Shown: piece by piece, positions 11,944 through 20,819 of the stretch
Layout: the number at the start of each line of letters is the position of its first letter
Position numbering within the stretch: the stretch's first letter is position 1
Source: an uncultured delta proteobacterium
GTDB taxonomy: Bacteria; Myxococcota_A; Polyangia; Polyangiales; B10-G4
Assembly (NCBI GenBank): GCA_963727445.1
Contig: CAVSGI010000006.1
Span: 320,001-384,000 of the forward strand
Length of the DNA: 64,000 bases
Direction: 5' to 3'
The notes under the pieces: model-generated
Seen by the model: only the letters and a program-made list of their open reading frames with translations
Databases searched by the model: none
Told to the model about the DNA's origin: nothing
Made by a program: the position numbers and the translations under genes

Positions 11944-12567
11944 GTGAACGACGGCGATACGAGGGCGACGCCCGGATCGGAAGAGGTCCTCGCGTTCTGG
12001 TTCGGGGCGCTCGACGAAGACGGTCTCGCCAGCACGACCAAGTCACAGCGCTGGTGGCGGAAGGACGAAGCCTTCGACGCGGAGATCGCAGAGCGTTTCG
12101 GTCCGCTGATCGACGCCGTCTGCGGCGATGAGAGGGAAGCCTGGCTGGAGACGCCCGGCGAGGCGCTCGCATACGTGATCGTCCTCGATCAGTTCGGCCG
12201 CAACGTTCACCGGGGAACGCCGCGCATGTACGCCGAGGACGACCGAGCGCTCCGTGCGGCGCAGCGGGCGGTGGAGAAGGGTTTCGACCGCCTCCTGCCG
12301 CTGTCTCATCGCGCGTTTCTCTACATGCCCCTGATGCATTGCGAGTCGAAGGAAGCTCAGGCGCAGTGTGTCGCGCTCTTCGAGACGATGCAGTCGGAGC
12401 TGTCGGGGGAGCGCGCCGAGCGGATGAAGGGGTTCGTGGAGGCGGCGCGTGCGCATCGTCGCATCGTCAATCGTTTCGGTCGCTTCCCCCACCGGAACGT
12501 CATCCTCGGCAGGACGAGCACCGCCGAGGAGTCCGCGTTCCTACAGGAGCCGGGATCGTCGTTCTGA
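11944..12567 (+). CDS. DUF924 family protein
   Basis: VLAFWF, IVLDQFGRN, FLYMPLMHCES, FGRFPHRNVILGRTST. Confidence 0.9.
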   Translation: MNDGDTRATPGSEEVLAFWFGALDEDGLASTTKSQRWWRKDEAFDAEIAERFGPLIDAVCGDEREAWLETPGEALAYVIVLDQFGRNVHRGTPRMYAEDDRALRAAQRAVEKGFDRLLPLSHRAFLYMPLMHCESKEAQAQCVALFETMQSELSGERAERMKGFVEAARAHRRIVNRFGRFPHRNVILGRTSTAEESAFLQEPGSSF

Positions 12568-12588: not shown

Positions 12589-13788
12589 GTGGACCCCAAG
12601 AAGCTCCGCTCCCACGGTGACGTCGACCTCGCCGACAAGCTCTTGGCCGAGCGCTTGGTCATCGATCTCAACGAGCGTCTCGAGAAGGAGCAGGAGAAGA
12701 CGCCGCTGGGGATCAGGCGGCATCTGCTCGCGACGTCCATTCGAATCACCGAGCGGATGTTGCCCGACATCTTCGGGCTGGTCGCCGAGTGCCGTGAGCG
12801 ACTCGACATCGAGATCTCGCTCGAGGTCTACGTCTACGCGTCCACCTCCTTCAATGCGATGTGCATCAAGCCGGAGCAGGGGCGTCTCTTCATCCTGCTG
12901 AGCTCCAGCCTGCTCGAGGCCTTCGCGCCGGGGGAGCAGCGTTTCGTGATCGGCCACGAGCTCGGTCACCACCTCTTCGGTCATCTCGACATCCCCATCG
13001 GCTTTCTTCTGGGTGGCGACGAGCCTCCTCCGCCGGATATCGCACTTCGCCTCTTCGCCTGGTCGCGCTACGCCGAGATCAGCGCCGACCGGGCCGGGGC
13101 CTACTGCGCGAACGATCCCGACGCGGTGGCGCGCGCTCTCTTTCGCCTCGCCTCGGGGCTCACCATCAACCTCGACGACATCCGCATCGACGACTTCGCG
13201 GCCCAGGTCGACGACATGCAGGTGGAGGCGCAGGAGCCGGGGGCGAAGGCGCCGCAGGCGGATTGGTTCTCCACTCATCCCTTCAGTCCCCTGCGCCTCA
13301 AGGCCGTCCGGCACTTCTTCGATTCGGAGCTCTTCGTGCGCGACGAAATTCCGGTCAGCACCCTCGAGGCCCGGGTGCAGACCTTGATGGCGCTGATGGA
13401 GCCGAGCTATCTCGACGAGAAGAGCGACGCCGCCGAGACCGCGCGACGGCTCCTCTTCGCCGGAGCCATCGCGGTGGCCAACGTCTCCGGCGGGATCGAC
13501 GAGGCGGAGATCGCGGCCTTCGAGAAGTTCTTCGGCGAGCACTCCTTCACCGACAAGCTCGACATCGAGGCGATCGTGGCCTCTCTCGACCACCGCGTGA
13601 GCGCCGCGCTCGAACAGGTCTCCCATTCGCGCCGCATCCAGGTCTTGCGCGATCTCTGCGTGATCGCGCGCGCAGACGGACACGTGGATGATTCCGAGCG
13701 AATCCTCCTCGAGGATCTGGCGGGCCGCCTCGAAGTCCCGGCCGAGCTCGTCCACGCGACCCTTTGTGGGAACTGCGATCTGGACTGA
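12589..13788 (+). CDS. M48-family Zn metallopeptidase fused to a C-terminal TerB-like domain
   Basis: FVIGHELGH, EISADRAG, STHP; C-terminal IAVANVSGGIDEAE and IARADGHVDDSERILL. Confidence 0.8.
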   Translation: MDPKKLRSHGDVDLADKLLAERLVIDLNERLEKEQEKTPLGIRRHLLATSIRITERMLPDIFGLVAECRERLDIEISLEVYVYASTSFNAMCIKPEQGRLFILLSSSLLEAFAPGEQRFVIGHELGHHLFGHLDIPIGFLLGGDEPPPPDIALRLFAWSRYAEISADRAGAYCANDPDAVARALFRLASGLTINLDDIRIDDFAAQVDDMQVEAQEPGAKAPQADWFSTHPFSPLRLKAVRHFFDSELFVRDEIPVSTLEARVQTLMALMEPSYLDEKSDAAETARRLLFAGAIAVANVSGGIDEAEIAAFEKFFGEHSFTDKLDIEAIVASLDHRVSAALEQVSHSRRIQVLRDLCVIARADGHVDDSERILLEDLAGRLEVPAELVHATLCGNCDLD

Positions 13789-13837: not shown

Positions 13838-15169
13838 GTGGGAGCTCGACTCGCGGCCCTTCATCTGGTCGTCCTGAGCGTGGCCTGCGGCCGCATCGAC
13901 TATGGGCCGATCGAAGGGGGCCTAGGGACCGACGCCGCCACCATGGACGCCTCGGATGCGTCCGACGTGATGGACGCCGTGACAGCTGACGTCGGGACGG
14001 ACGCGATGGCCAGCGATGGCGGTGAGACCGACTCGGCGGTGGGGGATGCTTCGTCCTGTTCGGGGTGCTCTCTCGGTGCGGAGTGCCTACCAGGGACCGA
14101 CCCCTCCGCCTGTGGATCCGGCGGTGGCCCCTGCATGGTGTGCGCGCCGACCGCGATATGTGGCGAAGGGAGCTGCACGACTCCGGATCGGCATGATCTG
14201 CTGGGTCTGGGCTTCGGGTGGAGCTGCGCTGCCAGAGGGGGATCGGGGTACTGCTGGGGCGGTAACTTCTCGGGCGAGCTGGGCGACGGCACGACCACCA
14301 ATCGGCCGATGCCCGGCTTGGTGTCGGGGTTGACCGGCGTCGCGGGGGTCGCGGCCAGCGACACCGCCACCTGCGCCCTCACCACCGACGGGGCCGTCTC
14401 GTGCTGGGGCTCGCGGACCTACGGGAGTTTCCCCGTTTCCATCGCCGCCCTCACCGACGCCGTGTCCCTTTCCGGCGGCGAAACGCACTTCTGCGCACTT
14501 CGCACCGGCGGCGTCGTCTCGTGCTGGGGCGACAACTTCGACGGGCGCCTCGGTGATGGGACGACGACCAGCTCGCCCTCACCGGTGAACGTCGCTGGCT
14601 TGCCCGGCGCCGCCGACCAGGTCACCGCCGGCTTCAGCCACTCCTGTGCGCGTGTCGGCGGTCAGGTCTACTGCTGGGGCTCGAACACCTTTGGGCAGCT
14701 CGGCGACTCGACCATGGCGCCTTCCCTCACGCCGGTCACGGTCACGGGACTGGGGGATGCCGTCGACATCGCCGCGGGCTATCGTCACACCTGCGCCGCC
14801 CGCGCGTCGGGTCCCGTGGTCTGCTGGGGGGCCAACTTCGCGCCCTCGCCGGTCACCGTCCCCATGTCCGACGGTGTCACCCGGCTCCGGGCGGGTTACG
14901 ACTACACGTGCGGCATCCGCTCCGGGAGCGTGCTCTGTTGGGGCATCAACGGTCTCGGCCAGCTCGGCGACGGGACCACCACCGCCCGGAGCGAAGCGAC
15001 GACGGTCGCGGCCATCGGGGGGGTGCTCGAGGTGGAGACGGGCAACCAGCACACATGCGCGCGGACGAGCGCGCTGGAGGTGTGGTGCTGGGGGGACAAT
15101 TCCGGCGGGGAGCTCGGGGACGGCTCGACTGTGGAGAGCCACGTACCGGTCCTCGTGGCGTTCCCCTGA
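13838..15169 (+). CDS. RCC1-repeat (beta-propeller) lipoprotein
   Basis: LSVAC lipobox, DA-rich linker, repeated CWGxNxxGxLGDGT and HTCA motifs; alternative ATG at 13829. Confidence 0.88.
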   Translation: MGARLAALHLVVLSVACGRIDYGPIEGGLGTDAATMDASDASDVMDAVTADVGTDAMASDGGETDSAVGDASSCSGCSLGAECLPGTDPSACGSGGGPCMVCAPTAICGEGSCTTPDRHDLLGLGFGWSCAARGGSGYCWGGNFSGELGDGTTTNRPMPGLVSGLTGVAGVAASDTATCALTTDGAVSCWGSRTYGSFPVSIAALTDAVSLSGGETHFCALRTGGVVSCWGDNFDGRLGDGTTTSSPSPVNVAGLPGAADQVTAGFSHSCARVGGQVYCWGSNTFGQLGDSTMAPSLTPVTVTGLGDAVDIAAGYRHTCAARASGPVVCWGANFAPSPVTVPMSDGVTRLRAGYDYTCGIRSGSVLCWGINGLGQLGDGTTTARSEATTVAAIGGVLEVETGNQHTCARTSALEVWCWGDNSGGELGDGSTVESHVPVLVAFP

Positions 15170-15281
15170 GGCGTGTGAAAAACTCGTGCAGTTCCGGAGA
15201 GATGGTGCCTTTGAATGATGTCGCCGCCCGCGGCAACATTACCTGGCAAGATGCTGGGGTCGATGGCATATTCGGGGTGAT

Positions 15282-15488
15282 TTGGAACACGACGACGAAG
15301 ACCGCCGTGCGCTGGCTAGGCGCAAGTTCCTGAAAGCAGCGGTGTATTTGCCGCCGCTGGTGGTGAGCGCCGTGAGCGCGAGCAAGGCGCATGCGCAGGC
15401 GAGCTGCACGCCGGCGACGTGTGGTCCGGTGACTTGTCCACCGGTGACGACCTGCATGCCGGACACCACCTGCATGCCGGCTGGCTGA
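15282..15488 (+). CDS. Putative RiPP precursor peptide (twin-Arg-like leader, Cys/Thr/Pro-repeat core)
   Basis: 68 aa: ARRKFLK..YLPPLV..AHA then QASCTPATCGPVTCPPVTTCMPDTTCMPAG; stop lies 3 nt before the radical SAM gene. Confidence 0.75.
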   Translation: MEHDDEDRRALARRKFLKAAVYLPPLVVSAVSASKAHAQASCTPATCGPVTCPPVTTCMPDTTCMPAG

Positions 15489-15491
15489 GCC

Positions 15492-16598
15492 TTGAGCCAC
15501 GGGTTGATCTACGTCCCGCCCCGCTGGTTCGGGCGGAGACGAGGCGACCGCCTCGAGCTCTCGGAAGCGGTGCTGGGTCACGAGGTCGTCCTCGAAGGAC
15601 GCGCCGCAAAGAGCGTGGTCGATCGCGGTGAGCTCGACGAGGCCACCCGCTTCTTCGCCCGTCACGACCCGGCCCTCGCCGGCTTCGAGACCGACCTCGA
15701 GAGCTCGCCGCCGGTTCCCCTCACCCGCAAGACGCTGCTCAAGGGGACGGAGTGGGGCCGGCTCTTCGTCGAGCTCACCGGCCGCTGCAACGAGCGCTGC
15801 GTCCACTGCTATGCGAGCGCGGGGCCCGAGGTGGGCGAGGCCCTCGACTGGCCCACCATCGCTCGGGTGATCGACCAGGCGCACGGGATCGGCTTCGCCT
15901 CGATCCAGCTCACCGGCGGCGATCCCCTGGTCTCCGAGCACTGCCTCGCGGCGGCGGCGAGGGTGCGGGAGCGTGGCTTCCGCGAGCTCGAGATCTACAC
16001 CAATGGGCTCGCCCTTCGAGGCGCGCTCTACGAGGGCTTGCGCGATCTGGACGCGCACTTCGCCTTCTCGGTCTACTCCTCGGACCCCGCGGTGCACGAC
16101 GCCATCACCCAGGTGCCGGGCAGCCTGAAGCGCACCTCCGAGGCGATCCGACGCGCCGCGGCGGACGGGCTGACCTTGCGGGTGGGGATCATCGAGATGG
16201 CGGGAAACACCGCGGGCCTCGAGGCCACGCGGCGTTACGTCGAAGGGCTCGGGGTGCCGGAGGATCGCATCTCGTCGGACAGCTCGAGGGAAGTGGGCCG
16301 AGGCGACAGCTTCGCCGGCGAGTCCCAGGGCGCGCACGGGGGGCGGGGCGGTGTCGCTGCGGGCGTCCCGCGTTTCGTCGGACGCGCCGCCGTCGCTTAC
16401 GACGGCAGGGTCCACCCCTGCATCTTCAGCCGCGCAACCGTCCTCGGTGACGTGCGCGCGCAGTCGCTGAGCGAGATCCTCGAGGACGACACGCCGCTGT
16501 CGCCGCCGTCGAGGCGATTGGAAGTCTTTGGAGAGAGCGCGTCGATGGCCTGCTGGGAGTGTCGCCTCAGAAACCAGCTCCTCGGAGGTGCGACGTGA
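15492..16598 (+). CDS. Radical SAM protein with reduced SPASM/twitch-like C-terminus
   Basis: ELTGRCNERCVHCY (CxxxCxxC), LTGGDP, YTNG, HDAIT; C-terminal YDGRVHPC and CWEC. Confidence 0.92.
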   Translation: MSHGLIYVPPRWFGRRRGDRLELSEAVLGHEVVLEGRAAKSVVDRGELDEATRFFARHDPALAGFETDLESSPPVPLTRKTLLKGTEWGRLFVELTGRCNERCVHCYASAGPEVGEALDWPTIARVIDQAHGIGFASIQLTGGDPLVSEHCLAAAARVRERGFRELEIYTNGLALRGALYEGLRDLDAHFAFSVYSSDPAVHDAITQVPGSLKRTSEAIRRAAADGLTLRVGIIEMAGNTAGLEATRRYVEGLGVPEDRISSDSSREVGRGDSFAGESQGAHGGRGGVAAGVPRFVGRAAVAYDGRVHPCIFSRATVLGDVRAQSLSEILEDDTPLSPPSRRLEVFGESASMACWECRLRNQLLGGAT

Positions 16599-16873
16599 GC
16601 GCGAACCCGGTCCCGGTTCCCAAAGAGCTACCCCGCCACGAGATCGGCCCCGAGGGCGAGACCGTCCTCTTCGACGCGGACGGGAGCCAGCTCCTGGTGC
16701 TGAACGACATCGGCGCCGGCGTCTGGCTGCTCCTCGACGGAGAGCGCGGCCTCGCCGACATCGTCGACGAGATCCTCGAGGTGCACCCCGCGACGCGCGA
16801 CGCCGTGGAGCGTGACGTGCGCGCCTTCCTGGACGACCTGGTCGAGCGCGGTCTCGTCACCTGGCGCGACTGA
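16595..16873 (+). CDS. PqqD family / RiPP recognition element (RRE) protein
   Basis: GETVLFD...LNDIGAGVWLLLDGERGLADIVDEI...DVRAFLDDLVERGLV; GTG overlaps the rSAM stop; GGAGG RBS. Confidence 0.9.
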   Translation: MSANPVPVPKELPRHEIGPEGETVLFDADGSQLLVLNDIGAGVWLLLDGERGLADIVDEILEVHPATRDAVERDVRAFLDDLVERGLVTWRD

Positions 16874-17688
16874 TGATGAACGGGGTGCTGGTCGTCGCCG
16901 ACCTCGAGGTGCGCGTGTCGACGAGCGTCCCGGAGATGCTCCCACGCCTCGAAGCGATCTTCGGTGCGCCCTCCGAGCGGCCGGTGAGTCGCAGCATGTC
17001 GCTGGTGATTGGCCGGGAGCCCGAGGGGACGCTCGAGGTGACCTTCGATGGGGAGGAGACGATCGGCGAGCTCGCCGACGGCGACATCATCCCGACAATC
17101 GAAGGGCTCATCTACCAGGCGGTCACCGAGACGCCCGGGCGCGCCGCGCTCCACGCCGGGTGCGTGACGCGGGGCGGGCACACCTTGCTCTTCGTGGGGC
17201 CGTCGAACTCCGGGAAGAGCTCGCTCTGTCGCGCCGCGCTCGGCCGGGGCTGGCGGTACGCGAGCGATGACCTGACGCTCTTCGACGGCAGGCGTCTGTT
17301 GGGCCTCTCGCGGTCGATCGCCTTCGACGTGATCGACGTGGCGAAGGAGACGCCGGCGTGGGTCCGTGACGCCGACGTCTCGACCTACCAGACCTACGTG
17401 GGCGACAAGAACATCGCCGTGCCGCTCGTCTCGGTCGCTCCTACCCATCGCGTCGACGATTGGATCGACGGACAGGGCGCACACGTCGTGATCCCCGAGC
17501 GCGTTCAGACACGGACCTCCCTCGCGCCCCTGCCGGCGACCGACGCGCTGGCGGCGCTCCTCGCCGGCGCGCACCACCCCGATCCCCCGGACCTGGGCGT
17601 GCTGACACGGCGCGAGGCCTATCGTTTGTCGTGGGTCTCGCCCGACGAGGGGATCCACGCGATCGAGCGTGCTCTCGGCCTCGACTGA
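16873..17688 (+). CDS. HprK-related P-loop kinase
   Basis: ALHAGCV..GGHTLLFVGPSNSGKSS..GWRYASDD, the HPr-kinase-like His, Walker A and DD signature. Confidence 0.85.
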   Translation: MMNGVLVVADLEVRVSTSVPEMLPRLEAIFGAPSERPVSRSMSLVIGREPEGTLEVTFDGEETIGELADGDIIPTIEGLIYQAVTETPGRAALHAGCVTRGGHTLLFVGPSNSGKSSLCRAALGRGWRYASDDLTLFDGRRLLGLSRSIAFDVIDVAKETPAWVRDADVSTYQTYVGDKNIAVPLVSVAPTHRVDDWIDGQGAHVVIPERVQTRTSLAPLPATDALAALLAGAHHPDPPDLGVLTRREAYRLSWVSPDEGIHAIERALGLD

Positions 17689-18530
17689 TGCGTCGGCGTA
17701 TCGAAGACGCACTTTACCACTCGATGGCGCGCGGGACGCGACGTCTGGTCGCGTCTCCCAGAGCTGGCCGTGCGCTCGCGACCAGTGCCGCCGCCATCCT
17801 GGCGCACGCGCTGGATCCGCGTGAACGCAGCCGCATCGGCATCGGCCTCTACGACGTGAGCTACGAGCCGTCTTACGAGCGCGAGGATCTCTACGATTGG
17901 GAACAGCGATGGTTCAGCCGGGTGTTGCCGGCGCCGCCGGGACGGATCCTGGTGGGCGCTGCCGGGGGAGGTCGTGAAGTGGGCGCGCTCCTCGAGCGAG
18001 GCTACGAGGTCGCCGCCTTCGAGCCCGCGGACAAGCCGCGCGCCCACGGTCGCGCGCGTCACCGTGGCCGCGTCACCATCGAAGCCGCCGACTACGACGC
18101 CCTCACCGCCGCCGTGCGAGGCGAAACGGCGTCGCCCCTGGCAGACATCGCACGCGCCCGCTACGACGCCGTGCTCCTCGGATGGGGTAGCTTCACCCAC
18201 GTTGCCGGCGGTGCACGGCGCGCGGCGCTCCTCTCCGCCTGCGACCAGCTCACCGACGGCCCGATCCTGGCGAGCTTCTATTTCCGCGAGGGGGCCGAAG
18301 CCCCTGACTCCCGCTCGGACGCCGCGCGATGGGGACGACGCATCGGGCGCGTGATCGGCCGCGCGCGCCGCGTGGAGGGCATCACCGAGGAGTGGGATTT
18401 CTACCATTGGGGTGGGTTCGCCCATCGCCTCTCGGTCGAGGACGTGGAGTCGGCGGCTCGGGCCGCAGGCCGGAAGGTTCTCTGGAGCCTGACCGACGGC
18501 TTCCCCCACGCGACGTTCACCAAGCTGTGA
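17688..18530 (+). CDS. Class I SAM-dependent methyltransferase-like protein
   Basis: RILVGAAGGGREVGALLERGYEVAAFEP, YDAVLLGWGSFTH; ATG overlaps the kinase stop (TGATG). Confidence 0.75.
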   Translation: MRRRIEDALYHSMARGTRRLVASPRAGRALATSAAAILAHALDPRERSRIGIGLYDVSYEPSYEREDLYDWEQRWFSRVLPAPPGRILVGAAGGGREVGALLERGYEVAAFEPADKPRAHGRARHRGRVTIEAADYDALTAAVRGETASPLADIARARYDAVLLGWGSFTHVAGGARRAALLSACDQLTDGPILASFYFREGAEAPDSRSDAARWGRRIGRVIGRARRVEGITEEWDFYHWGGFAHRLSVEDVESAARAAGRKVLWSLTDGFPHATFTKL

Positions 18531-18590
18531 GCGCGAGTGCCCCGGCCCGTGGTGTGTCCGTGGCCCCACGTGACGTGGCATGATGAATAG

Positions 18591-19382
18591 ATGTCGCCTC
18601 GCTCGTGCACTTTCGGCGCGCTCCTCGTGATGCTCGCGTCGTGCACGGTGGACTCGTCGGCCATCCGTCCCGAGTCGGACGTCGCACCGGGCCATGATGT
18701 CGGCGTCGACACGAGCACACTCGATGCCATGCGCGACACCGCCGCGCGCGACACGACCGTCCCATCCCGACCGGATGGCGGTCCCGCGGACGCGACGACC
18801 CCGATGGATGGCGCGTCACCGGACGCCGCGCCCGACACCGGCACCGCCTCCGACACCAGCACCCCGCCGGATACCATCGCCCCGCCCGATGCCAGCATCC
18901 CGCTCAATTGCGGCGACCGCACCCTCGACCGCGGCGAGTCCTGCGATGATGGGAACAACACCAGCGGTGACGGCTGCAGCGCCGTCTGTGAGACCGAGTC
19001 TTCCTTCGACGACTGCCCCGGCGCACGCCTGGTCATCGGGCTCGGTAGGCAGAGCTATCGCGGGTCCAACGCCGGGGCTGCTTCGACCCAGACCTGCAGC
19101 AGTGGTCGGGGCCGCGGGCCGGACGCGGTCTACACCATCGCGCCCAACTACACGGGGCGACTCAACATCCGGGTGACCTCGCCCTTCGACGCGGTGTTGA
19201 TGACCAAGAGCGCCTGCCCGGGGGCGGTGCAGTTCTTCTGCGAGGACAGCTGGTATGGCGGGAGCACCGAGCAGGTCACGGGCGGCGTGAGCGCCGGGAC
19301 GGAGTACATGGTGATCGTCTCCGGCTACGGCTCGAGCGACACCGGCGACTTCGAGCTCGTCTTTCGGGGCTCGTCGCCCTGA
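18591..19382 (+). CDS. Lipoprotein with a myxobacterial Cys-rich repeat (DUF4215-type) and a pre-peptidase C-terminal-like domain
   Basis: MLASC lipobox; CGDRTLDRGESCDDGNNTSGDGCSAVC; GPDAVY..FDAVL..YMVIVSGY. Confidence 0.75.
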   Translation: MSPRSCTFGALLVMLASCTVDSSAIRPESDVAPGHDVGVDTSTLDAMRDTAARDTTVPSRPDGGPADATTPMDGASPDAAPDTGTASDTSTPPDTIAPPDASIPLNCGDRTLDRGESCDDGNNTSGDGCSAVCETESSFDDCPGARLVIGLGRQSYRGSNAGAASTQTCSSGRGRGPDAVYTIAPNYTGRLNIRVTSPFDAVLMTKSACPGAVQFFCEDSWYGGSTEQVTGGVSAGTEYMVIVSGYGSSDTGDFELVFRGSSP

Positions 19383-19394
19383 GCCAGCGCGTCT

Positions 19395-20819
19395 TCAAAC
19401 GAGCGCTTTGGTCAGCACCGTCTCCTTGACCGAAGTGCCGCGCTCGGTCTCCGCGATCAGGAGATCGGCCGGGCACTTTCCTTCGTTCACCAGGGTGCGC
19501 AGCTTGCTCAGATGGATGCGCTCGTCGTCGCCGTTGCGGTTCAGGTTGCTCAGGCGCGACAGACCCGCGGCCGCGATGTCGAGCAGCTCGCTCGCCCACG
19601 TGCGCACCGGTCGCCCGGCGAGGGTGGCCGACAGGGCGCGTTCGGCGATCTCCGGCCGTGCCGCGGAGACGAGCTCGTGGTCGAGGGGTGCGCTCAACTT
19701 CTCGAGCGCATCCATCGCGTCGTCGTCGTAGAGAAGACCCTTCCACAGCGCCGGCAGCGCACAGACGAGCGACTGGTCCTGGCTGTCGGCGCCGCGCACT
19801 TCCAGGGTCTTCTTCAGCCGCGACTCGGGGAAGAGCGTGTTCAGGTGCGTCTCCCAGTCGGTGTGCGTCGCGTGCGCCCCTTCGAAGCCGTCCTTCATGA
19901 AGGCGCGGAAGGTCTGGCCGGTGTTCGCGAGGATCTTGCCGTCGCGCTTGACCAGAAACATGGGCACGTCGAGGGCCCACTCCACGTAGTCGCGGTAAGT
20001 GGCGGCCTCGCTCCATGCGAAGGGCAGAAGGCCGCTCCGGTCGGGATCCATGTCCAGCCAGACGCGGACGCGGCGGCTCTTGTCGCCACAGAGCTGTCCC
20101 TCGACGAAGGGGCTGTTCGCGAACATCGCGCTCACCACCGGCGCGACCGCGAGGGAGAGCCGCAGCTTGCGCATCGCGTCCGCTTCGCTCTCGAAGTCGA
20201 GATTGGCCTGCACGGTCGCCGTTCGCAGCATCATGTCGAGCGCCATCGTGCCGCGGGTGGGCAGGTACTCCTTCATGATGCCGTAGCGGAGCTTCGGGAC
20301 CCACGGCAGGTCTTCGCGTTCGGCGAAGGGGTGGAAGCCGAGACCCAGCCACGCGATGCCGAGCTCGGAGGAGATGTCGGCGAGCTCCTGCATGTGCCCG
20401 CGAAATTCGGCGCACGTCTGGTGAACGGTCTCGTGGGGCGCTCCCGACAGCTCGAACTGGCCGCCGGGCTCGAGGGTGATGCTGGTGGCTCCGCGCTGCA
20501 GGCTGATGACCTGACCGCCCGCGTGCTCCCGCTCCTCGAACCAACCGTGATGCGTCGTGAGGCTCTCGAAGACCGCCTGAATGCTCCGCTCCCCTTCGTA
20601 GGGCAGGGGGCTTCCATCGGGGAGGAGCACCCCGATCTTCTCCATCTCGGTGCCGATGCGGAAGCGACTGCGCGGCTTCTCGGCTTCGTGGAAGGGGCGG
20701 AGGAGGTCGGAAAAGTCCCGGAGTCGCTCGCTGTCTTTTTCGTAATCCAAGGAGAAGCCCGTGGTGGGAGGTCTCTGGTTGAGCCGACTGTTCGTTCGGG
20801 CGGCCCGAGGGGTTACCAT
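19395..20819 (-). CDS. gshA: Glutamate--cysteine ligase (GCS2 / plant-alphaproteobacterial type)
   Basis: IGTEMEK, ITLEPGGQFELSGAP, WVPKLRY, MMLRTATVQANLD, HLNTLFPESRLKKTLEVRGAD; start uncertain (TTG 20750 possible). Confidence 0.9.
   Translation of the reverse strand: MVTPRAARTNSRLNQRPPTTGFSLDYEKDSERLRDFSDLLRPFHEAEKPRSRFRIGTEMEKIGVLLPDGSPLPYEGERSIQAVFESLTTHHGWFEEREHAGGQVISLQRGATSITLEPGGQFELSGAPHETVHQTCAEFRGHMQELADISSELGIAWLGLGFHPFAEREDLPWVPKLRYGIMKEYLPTRGTMALDMMLRTATVQANLDFESEADAMRKLRLSLAVAPVVSAMFANSPFVEGQLCGDKSRRVRVWLDMDPDRSGLLPFAWSEAATYRDYVEWALDVPMFLVKRDGKILANTGQTFRAFMKDGFEGAHATHTDWETHLNTLFPESRLKKTLEVRGADSQDQSLVCALPALWKGLLYDDDAMDALEKLSAPLDHELVSAARPEIAERALSATLAGRPVRTWASELLDIAAAGLSRLSNLNRNGDDERIHLSKLRTLVNEGKCPADLLIAETERGTSVKETVLTKALV

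Follow-up and report, generated by a model that had tools for sequence, protein, structure and literature searches.

A conserved myxobacterial gene cassette built around a Cys-X-Pro repeat precursor, and its proposed product, an exported thioether-bridged phosphopeptide

The window analysed here is a stretch of 64,000 nucleotides of contig CAVSGI010000006.1 from an uncultured delta proteobacterium of the order Polyangiales (assembly GCA_963727445.1). It carries a compact five-gene cluster that an earlier reading of the sequence, the original prediction, had proposed as a pathway for a peptide made on the ribosome and modified after translation (RiPP). All five open reading frames (ORFs) were found on the + strand where that prediction had placed them. 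They encode a precursor peptide (15282..15488, 68 amino acids from a TTG start, with a leader of residues 1-38 and a 30-residue core), a radical S-adenosylmethionine (SAM) maturase identified by Pfam, homologues and a structure model (15492..16598), a discrete PqqD-family RiPP recognition element (RRE; 16595..16873), a kinase of the HPr-kinase/PEPCK fold (16873..17688) and an accessory class I SAM-dependent methyltransferase of an unnamed family with weak family matches (17688..18530). The junctions are likewise as described, with a 3-nt gap after the precursor stop codon, a GTGA overlap at 16595 and TGATG overlaps at 16873 and 17688. Two gene starts are uncertain: the TTG of the precursor has a weak Shine-Dalgarno sequence, and the radical SAM gene may begin at 15492 or 15504. 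The enzyme labels stood up, since Radical_SAM (65 bits), SPASM (28 bits) and PqqD (PF05402, 62.6 bits) all score above their Pfam cut-offs; the HprK-like kinase label was borne out, with 41.8 bits for HprK-related kinase A, under its cut-off of 200, and so was that of the methyltransferase. In its own genome (9.5 Mb, 86% complete) the precursor and RRE genes are single-copy, the discrete RRE being the sole PqqD match, and the other three genes have one strong match each. The GC content of the cluster is level with that of the remaining window, and no sigma-70 promoter or intrinsic terminator pattern was found at 15000-18700.

The five-gene cassette is a conserved family common to many myxobacteria. 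Scoring of 8000 candidates gave 335 homologues of the radical SAM protein at E<=1e-25; the named ones come from Polyangiales and Myxococcales metagenome-assembled genomes, which makes a myxobacterial host most likely. A profile of 117 homologues matched 15 of 401 genomes of the phylum and 45 of 401 of the order, the own genome included. A profile of 59 precursors matched 14 of the same 401 phylum genomes, all of them within the 15 positive for the radical SAM enzyme, and the fifteenth holds a short precursor (30 bits) beside the enzyme gene; the pairing of precursor and enzyme therefore exceeds chance. We mapped 39 genome loci (the own locus plus loci fetched from 38 of 48 further positive genomes, all 10 that were left out belonging to one well-sampled genus) and nine metagenome loci, 48 loci in all. 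A precursor gene adjoins the radical SAM gene in 36 of the 39 genome loci, so that the upstream peptide on whose recurrence the original prediction had staked itself is indeed there, and the RRE and the kinase are each present in 37. The three genome loci that lack a precursor comprise a contig end (L163), an assembly gap (L168) and a locus with a frameshifted radical SAM gene (L026). Six of the metagenome loci have a precursor and the other three begin inside or just before the enzyme gene. The usual order is precursor, radical SAM, RRE, kinase; in L024, L152, L155 and L158 the precursor has been relocated yet still lies inside the cluster. The methyltransferase, which the original prediction had counted as a member of the cluster, is present in the window as claimed but proved to be optional (15/39), and an equally common optional neighbour, a PF14907 nucleotidyltransferase (16/39), is absent from it. 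The boundary of the family is sharp: full-length members score at least 298 bits on the radical SAM profile and other radical SAM loci at most 146, the 71 outgroup metagenome loci (L077-L147) having been used for this score boundary only.

Some individual loci deserve mention. L152 carries two tandem precursors with differing cores (L152:9784-10353), with the methyltransferase gene between the radical SAM gene and the precursors. In L026 the radical SAM gene (L026:7161-8521) is split by a frameshift, no precursor was found and the methyltransferase lies about 1 Mb away, possibly a decaying copy or an assembly error. In many of the outgroup loci a PqqD gene lies immediately upstream of a radical SAM gene that is more distantly related (109-146 bits); this is probably another peptide-modifying family.

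The precursor was searched for among 1.84 billion representatives (E<=0.001), which gave 59 matches; one unrelated repeat protein was dropped, leaving 58 homologues. Two sets are used below, 59 aligned peptides and 42 peptides located beside an enzyme gene; recognition reached its limit at L076, a divergent, long, Cys-rich member. Invariant across the aligned precursors are the first Arg of the leader, the Pro of a YxxP motif and, in each of the first two repeats, Cys and Pro. The original prediction had described a Cys/Thr repeat, and this does not hold: the conserved unit is Cys-X-Pro (CxP), the Thr richness being incidental to the window copy. CxP occurs at 295 of 303 core Cys in the aligned set and at 199 of 207 in the located set, with a variable X and one to ten repeats per precursor. 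Successive core Cys are mostly 5 (127 times) or 6 (77 times) residues apart, together 204 of 243 intervals, and precursors with only one or two CxP units adjoin intact enzymes in L166, L052 and L162. Repeat number and spacing vary, but the residue at Cys+2 is nearly always Pro, so CxP is probably a local reaction unit. The predicted window core (residues 39-68, 15396..15485, +) has five such units, the last two with Met as X, and a candidate phosphorylation site at Ser41, core residue 3. Ser or Thr immediately precedes the first Cys in 55/59 aligned precursors and lies within three residues of the first CxP in 35/42 located ones, the first Cys being at core position 4 or 5 in 28/38. The core C-termini vary. 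In one homologue (P0058) the core runs into a tail that resembles the Peptidase_S74 intramolecular chaperone motif, and one aligned precursor matches the Peptidase_S74 family at E 0.0066.

The radical SAM enzyme combines an N-terminal RRE-type domain, a CxxxCxxC core (C99, C103, C106) and a Twitch domain whose three Cys (C310, C354, C357) are conserved in 117, 116 and 116 of 117 homologues; across the same homologues no further conserved C-terminal Cys was found, and none before the hairpin. In the structure model (predicted local distance difference test, pLDDT, 90) the N-terminus has three strands followed by three helices, the RRE topology, and the C-terminus is of the Twitch type. The best solved match by profile (E 2.3e-19), Foldseek and VIA-align is SkfB, which VIA-align superposes with Z 24.3 and a root-mean-square deviation of 6.4 over 290 aligned residues (residues 6-363, N-terminal domain included). 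The assignment of the N-terminal domain as an RRE rests on its secondary structure and on this superposition. For SkfB, PMC6231123 describes the same layout, with an open site at the three-Cys Twitch cluster. The likeness, including the open three-Cys cluster, favours binding of a substrate thiol and hence thioether formation. A SPASM/Twitch radical SAM enzyme and an RRE beside a Cys-containing precursor, the gene set expected of a sactipeptide cluster, are all present at the locus. The curated sactisynthase families are matched at scores far under their cut-offs (SkfB 37/300, AlbA 38/850 and StsB 64/625 bits); the best E-values among the 117 members run from 6e-19 to 6e-22 for AlbA and StsB. 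In keeping with the earlier view that the enzyme set is not a recognised pathway, none of the five window proteins reaches an NCBIfam family cut-off.

The leader, judged by its motifs, reads as a signal peptide of the twin-arginine translocation (Tat) type with a YxxP RRE-binding motif inside it. Its twin-arginine motif RRKFLK (residues 13-18, 15318..15335, +) compares with the Tat consensus SRRxFLK given in PMC7317946, from which our criteria for Tat signals were taken. RR is found in 58/59 aligned and 42/42 enzyme-adjacent precursors, RRx[FL][LFI] in 55/59 and RRx[FL][LFI][KR] in 49/59 of the aligned ones, and neither Arg is ever replaced by Lys. At the start of the hydrophobic stretch lies a putative RRE-recognition motif, YxxPx[LIV] (residues 22-27, 15345..15362, +), of the kind defined as YxxPx[LVI] in PMC13381572 and PMC12710340; it occurs as YxxPx[ILVM] in 57/59 aligned and as [Y/W]xxPx[ILV] in 42/42 enzyme-adjacent precursors. 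The stretch is moderately hydrophobic and almost uncharged (mean hydropathy 1.36, 0.47 charged residues per 14, n=43), and it is followed by a basic residue and an AxA site of the signal peptidase I type (residues 36-38, 15387..15395, +), with predicted cleavage before Gln39. AxA is present in 37/42 precursors, a basic residue near the predicted cut in 34/51 and Gln at +1 in 28/38. Moderate hydrophobicity, AxA, a basic c-region residue and the RR motif are thus all found in the leader; two Tat models give weak matches to 15 and 3 of the 59 precursors (E<=1).

The original prediction had remarked on the missing ABC exporter, and the cluster indeed has none; what had gone unnoticed is the Tat-type signal, which would probably explain why both exporter and peptidase are missing. 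An ABC transporter was found in 1/48 loci, 3 kb distant, a profile built from four myxobacterial S26-like proteins detected no S26-like peptidase either in the 48 loci or in the own genome, and no peptidase recurs among the neighbours of homologous loci. Six sister myxobacterial precursors have YxxP and lack both RR and the hydrophobic stretch (hydropathy -0.33 to -1.67); these adjoin either an S26-like peptidase gene (L174, L176, L178) or an ABC transporter (L181, L184, L189), which supports the Tat reading of the CxP leader, the peptidase label resting on a Ser/His motif for which Pfam gave no match. TatC is present in the own genome and in 19/19 cluster genomes tested, a weak point since 11/14 control genomes have it as well. 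A lipoprotein reading of about a dozen precursors, mostly of one family, in which Gly/Ala-Cys replaces AxA was rejected: the -3 residue is usually polar and the Cys may be at -1.

The kinase carries His94, a Walker A Lys115 and the acidic pair Asp132-Asp133; the His, the Lys and an acidic pair are present in 24/24 aligned orthologues taken from the fetched homologous loci. Its profile matches L. casei HPrK at E 5.9e-7 across this signature, and its model (pLDDT 93.5) resembles the PEPCK and HPrK folds. A word-based homologue search returned only the kinase itself, and a scan of genome contigs gave two unrelated loci. According to PMC9266682, the His-Lys-Asp-Asp set is that of lasso peptide kinases of the paeninodin type, and PMC13381572 reports that LppK polyphosphorylates core Ser3, just after a cut of the signal-peptidase type. 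When the discrete RRE and residues 1-45 of the leader were modelled as a complex, the median was 0.31 against a mark of 0.32, with controls at 0.00-0.02; this outcome is not used as evidence. The own genome holds two PF14907 nucleotidyltransferase genes outside the window. These stand-alone genes (G000:C16:38335-38928 and G000:C9:162955-163521, at L149 and L150), whose neighbours, as named from their translations, are a probable sugar epimerase gene for one and a probable elongation factor G gene for the other, might act on the peptide in trans.

Orthologues of the methyltransferase match Methyltransf_11/25 weakly, and the match to daptide_MTase is 19 bits against a cut-off of 175. The presence of METHYLTRANSFERASE (the methyltransferase) tracks Met-Pro in the core, with 15 loci having both, 22 neither and none discordant among 37 scorable loci; 10 of 47 rows, truncated or without a precursor, were excluded, and a quick tree was used. 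The family occurs in 88 of 401 order genomes, namely 24 of the 45 that are positive for the enzyme and 64 others. Outside the CxP family it stands beside other radical SAM/kinase cassettes in 7/20 fetched loci and beside a nucleotidyltransferase in 5/20, which points to a mobile tailoring gene of a wider radical SAM/kinase group. Sister cassettes give mixed support for Met, with Met in three precursors and none in L174 and L176. The target may be the Met-Pro units or the phosphate arm.

Taken as a whole, we lean towards a Tat-exported, thioether-bridged phosphopeptide RiPP. The 68-residue peptide is very probably the substrate of the cluster, as its co-occurrence with the enzyme indicates. In the cytoplasm the discrete RRE, perhaps together with the N-terminal domain of the radical SAM enzyme, is likely to grip the YxxP motif, going by the motif itself. 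The SkfB-like enzyme would then probably bind each core Cys at the open auxiliary-cluster site and form thioethers, each with a loss of 2 Da and up to five in number. As a tentative choice, the Pro of CxP would be the simplest acceptor, giving a nine-membered ring if attacked at C-alpha; the title of a QmpB reference listed in PMC9389541 provides a precedent for a nine-membered sactionine ring. By analogy, the kinase may well (poly)phosphorylate Ser41, just before the first CxP, and the nucleotidyltransferase, where present, would decorate the Ser phosphate. The optional methyltransferase might perhaps act on the Met-Pro units. The rigid modified peptide would probably leave the cytoplasm through Tat, with the housekeeping signal peptidase cutting it at AxA to give a 30-residue core that starts with Gln, and its most likely role would be that of a periplasmic or secreted envelope or signalling peptide. 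The idea of a crosslinked, phosphorylated and methylated product remains the best guess for crosslinking and phosphorylation, methylation being only accessory. A fuller version combines one leader serving as both RRE dock and Tat signal, with export as quality control, CxP thioether rings onto Pro, a phosphorylated and sometimes nucleotidylated or glycosylated N-terminal Ser, and methylation tied to Met-Pro; we consider it unlikely that all of this is right together.

Several observations weigh against the reading of a Tat-exported, thioether-bridged phosphopeptide, and we give them here with the alternatives, which overlap and whose probabilities do not add up to one. Conservation is inflated in both precursor sets, because the window peptide or a profile from it served to recognise their members. 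Seven of 42 precursors have no Ser or Thr near the first CxP. For methylation, 64 of the 88 genomes with the methyltransferase are without the CxP radical SAM enzyme, and on the tree the link to Met-Pro comes down to four changes and two independent pairs (p=0.5), which is not significant.

The alternative that survives best keeps the thioethers and moves the acceptor. Each Cys would be joined to a residue of a neighbouring repeat in type-2 sactionine or ranthionine rings that are not nested, and the invariant Pro would do no more than set a turn; we regard this as possible though doubtful. Known sactisynthases tolerate varied acceptor residues, and the predominant Cys spacing of 5 or 6 would suit such rings. 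GggB and QmpB form alternating unnested rings, according to PMC9389541. Against this stand the absence of any other conserved core position, spacing that varies inside one peptide, and the precursors with single or double CxP units beside intact enzymes, which favour a local unit.

Somewhat less likely is that the leader is no Tat signal, RRxLL being instead an element recognised by the enzymes, with the peptide staying in the cytoplasm or membrane or using a protease and exporter encoded elsewhere, as proteases outside the cluster serve many RiPP clusters (PMC10885120). The region before RR is acidic, with a median net charge of -3 where a positively charged n-region is expected, the RR motif itself contributing three or four basic residues; the residue preceding RR is Ala in 49/59 rather than the consensus Ser, Leu replaces the consensus Phe in 43/59, two prolines occur early in the hydrophobic stretch, and the window precursor matches no Tat model (E<=1). 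This alternative has to contend with the joint conservation, at fixed spacing and in eleven families of the phylum, of RR, the hydrophobic stretch, the basic residue and AxA, with the lack of any Lys at either Arg in 59 sequences, and with the sister cassettes, which lack Tat features and carry their own peptidase or transporter.

It is improbable, though worth weighing, that the radical SAM enzyme changes Pro, X or Cys otherwise, by epimerisation, desaturation or Cys oxidation, and that the product is a Cys-rich exported metal-binding peptide with a bufferin-like role; Cys-rich RiPPs with signal peptides bind copper, according to PMC11626156. Identity to SkfB is only 16-19%, the non-RiPP enzymes BlsE (Z 21.9) and MoaA (Z 19.8) rank just below it, EpeE is also a close structural neighbour, and MoaA, fourth in the structural match, likewise has an open site. 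The catalytic-site residues Y-T-Y-S-I-F agree at three of six positions with the Y-T-I-S-K-L that PMC10288494 gives for StsB, differing at residues 3, 5 and 6; those of SkfB, read off the alignment, are Y-T-F-S-Q-L, the six-position mapping being our own. With hhalign, no similarity was found between the PqqD of the cluster and the N-terminal domain of the radical SAM enzyme. On the other hand, three methods give as the best match a sactisynthase that shares the three-domain layout and the three-Cys Twitch site, and no metal-resistance gene recurs among the neighbours.

Finally, that the small ORF is a chance frame, its enzymes serving a cofactor or other pathway, is hardly credible: spurious ORFs are common in high-GC DNA (103 of at least 40 amino acids in 14 kb), the ribosome-binding site is weak with a TTG start, L155 and L166 are without a kinase or RRE by profile and L026 without a peptide, but 58 homologues with conserved motif structure, adjacency in 36/39 loci despite rearranged order in L024, L152, L155 and L158, and a frameshifted radical SAM gene at the sole assessable peptide-less locus leave it effectively refuted by the co-occurrence of precursor and radical SAM enzyme.

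Part of the cassette has a known counterpart. The combination of RRE and HprK-like kinase, with or without nucleotidyltransferase, is already known: it tailors lasso peptides of the paeninodin type as well as linear polyphosphorylated peptides (LPP), as PMC13381572 sets out. LPP (lppAKBSDN, Paenibacillus alginolyticus), as described there, resembles the CxP cassette in its discrete RRE, HprK-like kinase, frequent nucleotidyltransferase, YxxP leader, lack of a lasso cyclase, signal-peptidase-type processing and a Ser a few residues past the cut. LPP clusters differ in that they bring a SipW-like peptidase and an MsbA-like exporter of their own, lack a radical SAM enzyme among the core genes, belong to Bacillota, and have another leader consensus and variable cores; the CxP cassette has a radical SAM enzyme, CxP repeats and a Tat-like leader. 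In our loci, the discrete RRE and HprK-like kinase with a YxxP leader were found; a cluster-encoded SpI-like peptidase was not found in the 48 loci or the own genome, an MsbA-like transporter with an NTP transferase is not the rule (ABC in 1/48 loci, NTP transferase in 16/39), and in place of the LPP consensus ...FETxxS after YxxP the 59 precursors have a hydrophobic stretch followed by AxA. Paeninodin and pseudomycoidin (PadeK, PsmK, PsmN; PMC9266682) share the His-Lys-Asp-Asp kinase, the nucleotidyltransferase partner and the RRE, whereas the CxP cassette lacks a conserved C-terminal Ser, its candidate Ser lying at the core N-terminus, and has neither lasso cyclase nor B2 peptidase among its five genes or recurring neighbours, as had been noted earlier.

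On the side of the maturase, SkfB (PDB 6EFN) shares the RRE-type domain, radical SAM core and three-Cys Twitch, as portrayed in PMC6231123. It differs in family score (TIGR04403, 37 bits against a cut-off of 300) and in Cys pattern (CX33CXC against CX43CX2C), and the CxP cassette has in addition a repeated CxP substrate, a discrete RRE and a kinase. StsABC of Streptomyces sparsogenes (PMC10288494) is alike in its radical SAM enzyme with a discrete RRE of the YxxP group and is the best NCBIfam match at 64 bits, far off the cut-off of 625; it forms Cys-Gly hairpin sactionines, and that paper mentions no kinase. Bufferins and oxazolins (PMC11626156, PMC12452194) likewise have a Cys-rich precursor with a general-secretion signal and no dedicated exporter or peptidase, but theirs is a Sec signal with MNIO/DUF2063 enzymes, not a twin-arginine motif with radical SAM enzyme, RRE and kinase. 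By analogy, the cassette would work like the LPP tailoring arm joined to an SkfB-type maturase with bufferin-like general secretion.

Predicted, uncharacterised families come close as well: TIGR04114/TIGR04115, CefA (NF038108) and SynChlorMet (ScmC/D/E/F) have Cys-repeat precursors or sets of radical SAM, PqqD and HprK-like proteins, and a language model judged the same families similar to the precursor (0.91, low recognition). The leader of TIGR04114 members is probably twin-arginine-like as well. Neither TIGR04114 nor TIGR04115 matches the locus at E<=1, and a Cys spacing of 4 occurs in 9/243 intervals. CefA (30-bit threshold) has no match at the locus and matches 2/59 precursors (best E 0.058). 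For SynChlorMet the scores against cut-offs are 26/125 (ScmC), 44/100 (ScmD), 36/400 (ScmE) and 50/400 (ScmF) bits, with one radical SAM gene rather than two, and for HPr-rel-A they are 41.8/200 (TIGR04352 kinase) and 13.6/35 (TIGR04353 PqqD). Elsewhere in the own genome there is a CefA match above the cut-off (G000:C20:746544-746648), with several other radical SAM genes on that contig. We found no description of the CxP-cassette family in the literature, though the supplements of PMC10288494 and PMC12710340 could list it; the spreadsheet of PMC10288494 gave no match for the leader motifs or taxon words, and its supplementary information has six further predicted sactipeptide groups. A search of the literature on Tat-linked RiPPs gave no natural example.

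Two further groups of myxobacterial loci came to light. At L174:4872-5039, L176:3179-3355 and L178:3868-4179 there are precursors whose leader resembles that of LPP (YxxP ... FETL, followed by Cys); each adjoins a gene for an S26-like peptidase and one for a methyltransferase of the family found in the window. A kinase, PqqD and a SPASM radical SAM gene are present at L176 as well, and a sulfotransferase at L178. LPP-like systems may thus extend beyond Bacillota. A second recurring cassette (L181:2237-2413, L184:7271-7450, L189:624-812, also L180, L182 and L187) combines a Cys-free YxxP precursor, its tail rich in Gly, Met and Ser, with a different radical SAM enzyme, a kinase, PqqD, an ABC transporter, a methyltransferase and often a nucleotidyltransferase. 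L049, L158 and L165, from two families, share a neighbour gene of about 820 amino acids, which we tentatively take to be a polysaccharide chain-length/tyrosine kinase gene, echoing the capsule-locus link of LPP. Upstream, the window cluster is flanked by the gene of an RCC1-repeat protein, and downstream by that of a Cys-rich myxobacterial repeat protein, neither recurring as a fixed member. Farther out lie an M48 peptidase fused to a TerB-like domain (12589-13788, +), a DUF924 protein (11944-12567, +) and a glutamate-cysteine ligase (19395-20819, -), none recurring at homologous loci.

RiPP precursors rarely carry secretion signals. Export of a RiPP by a general pathway in its natural host has been shown only for the Sec-exported bufferins, according to PMC12452194. 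If our reading is correct, a twin-arginine leader that harbours an RRE motif would give RiPPs a second general export route, and the Tat route would fit a peptide that needs modification by oxygen-sensitive enzymes before export. An enzyme acting on the three residues of CxP whatever the repeat number would be a portable cyclisation tool, and to our knowledge no Cys-to-Pro bridge is known. With more than 300 enzymes, and with natural variants that differ in repeat number (1 to 10) and in the presence or absence of each accessory gene, the family makes each step directly testable by co-expression.

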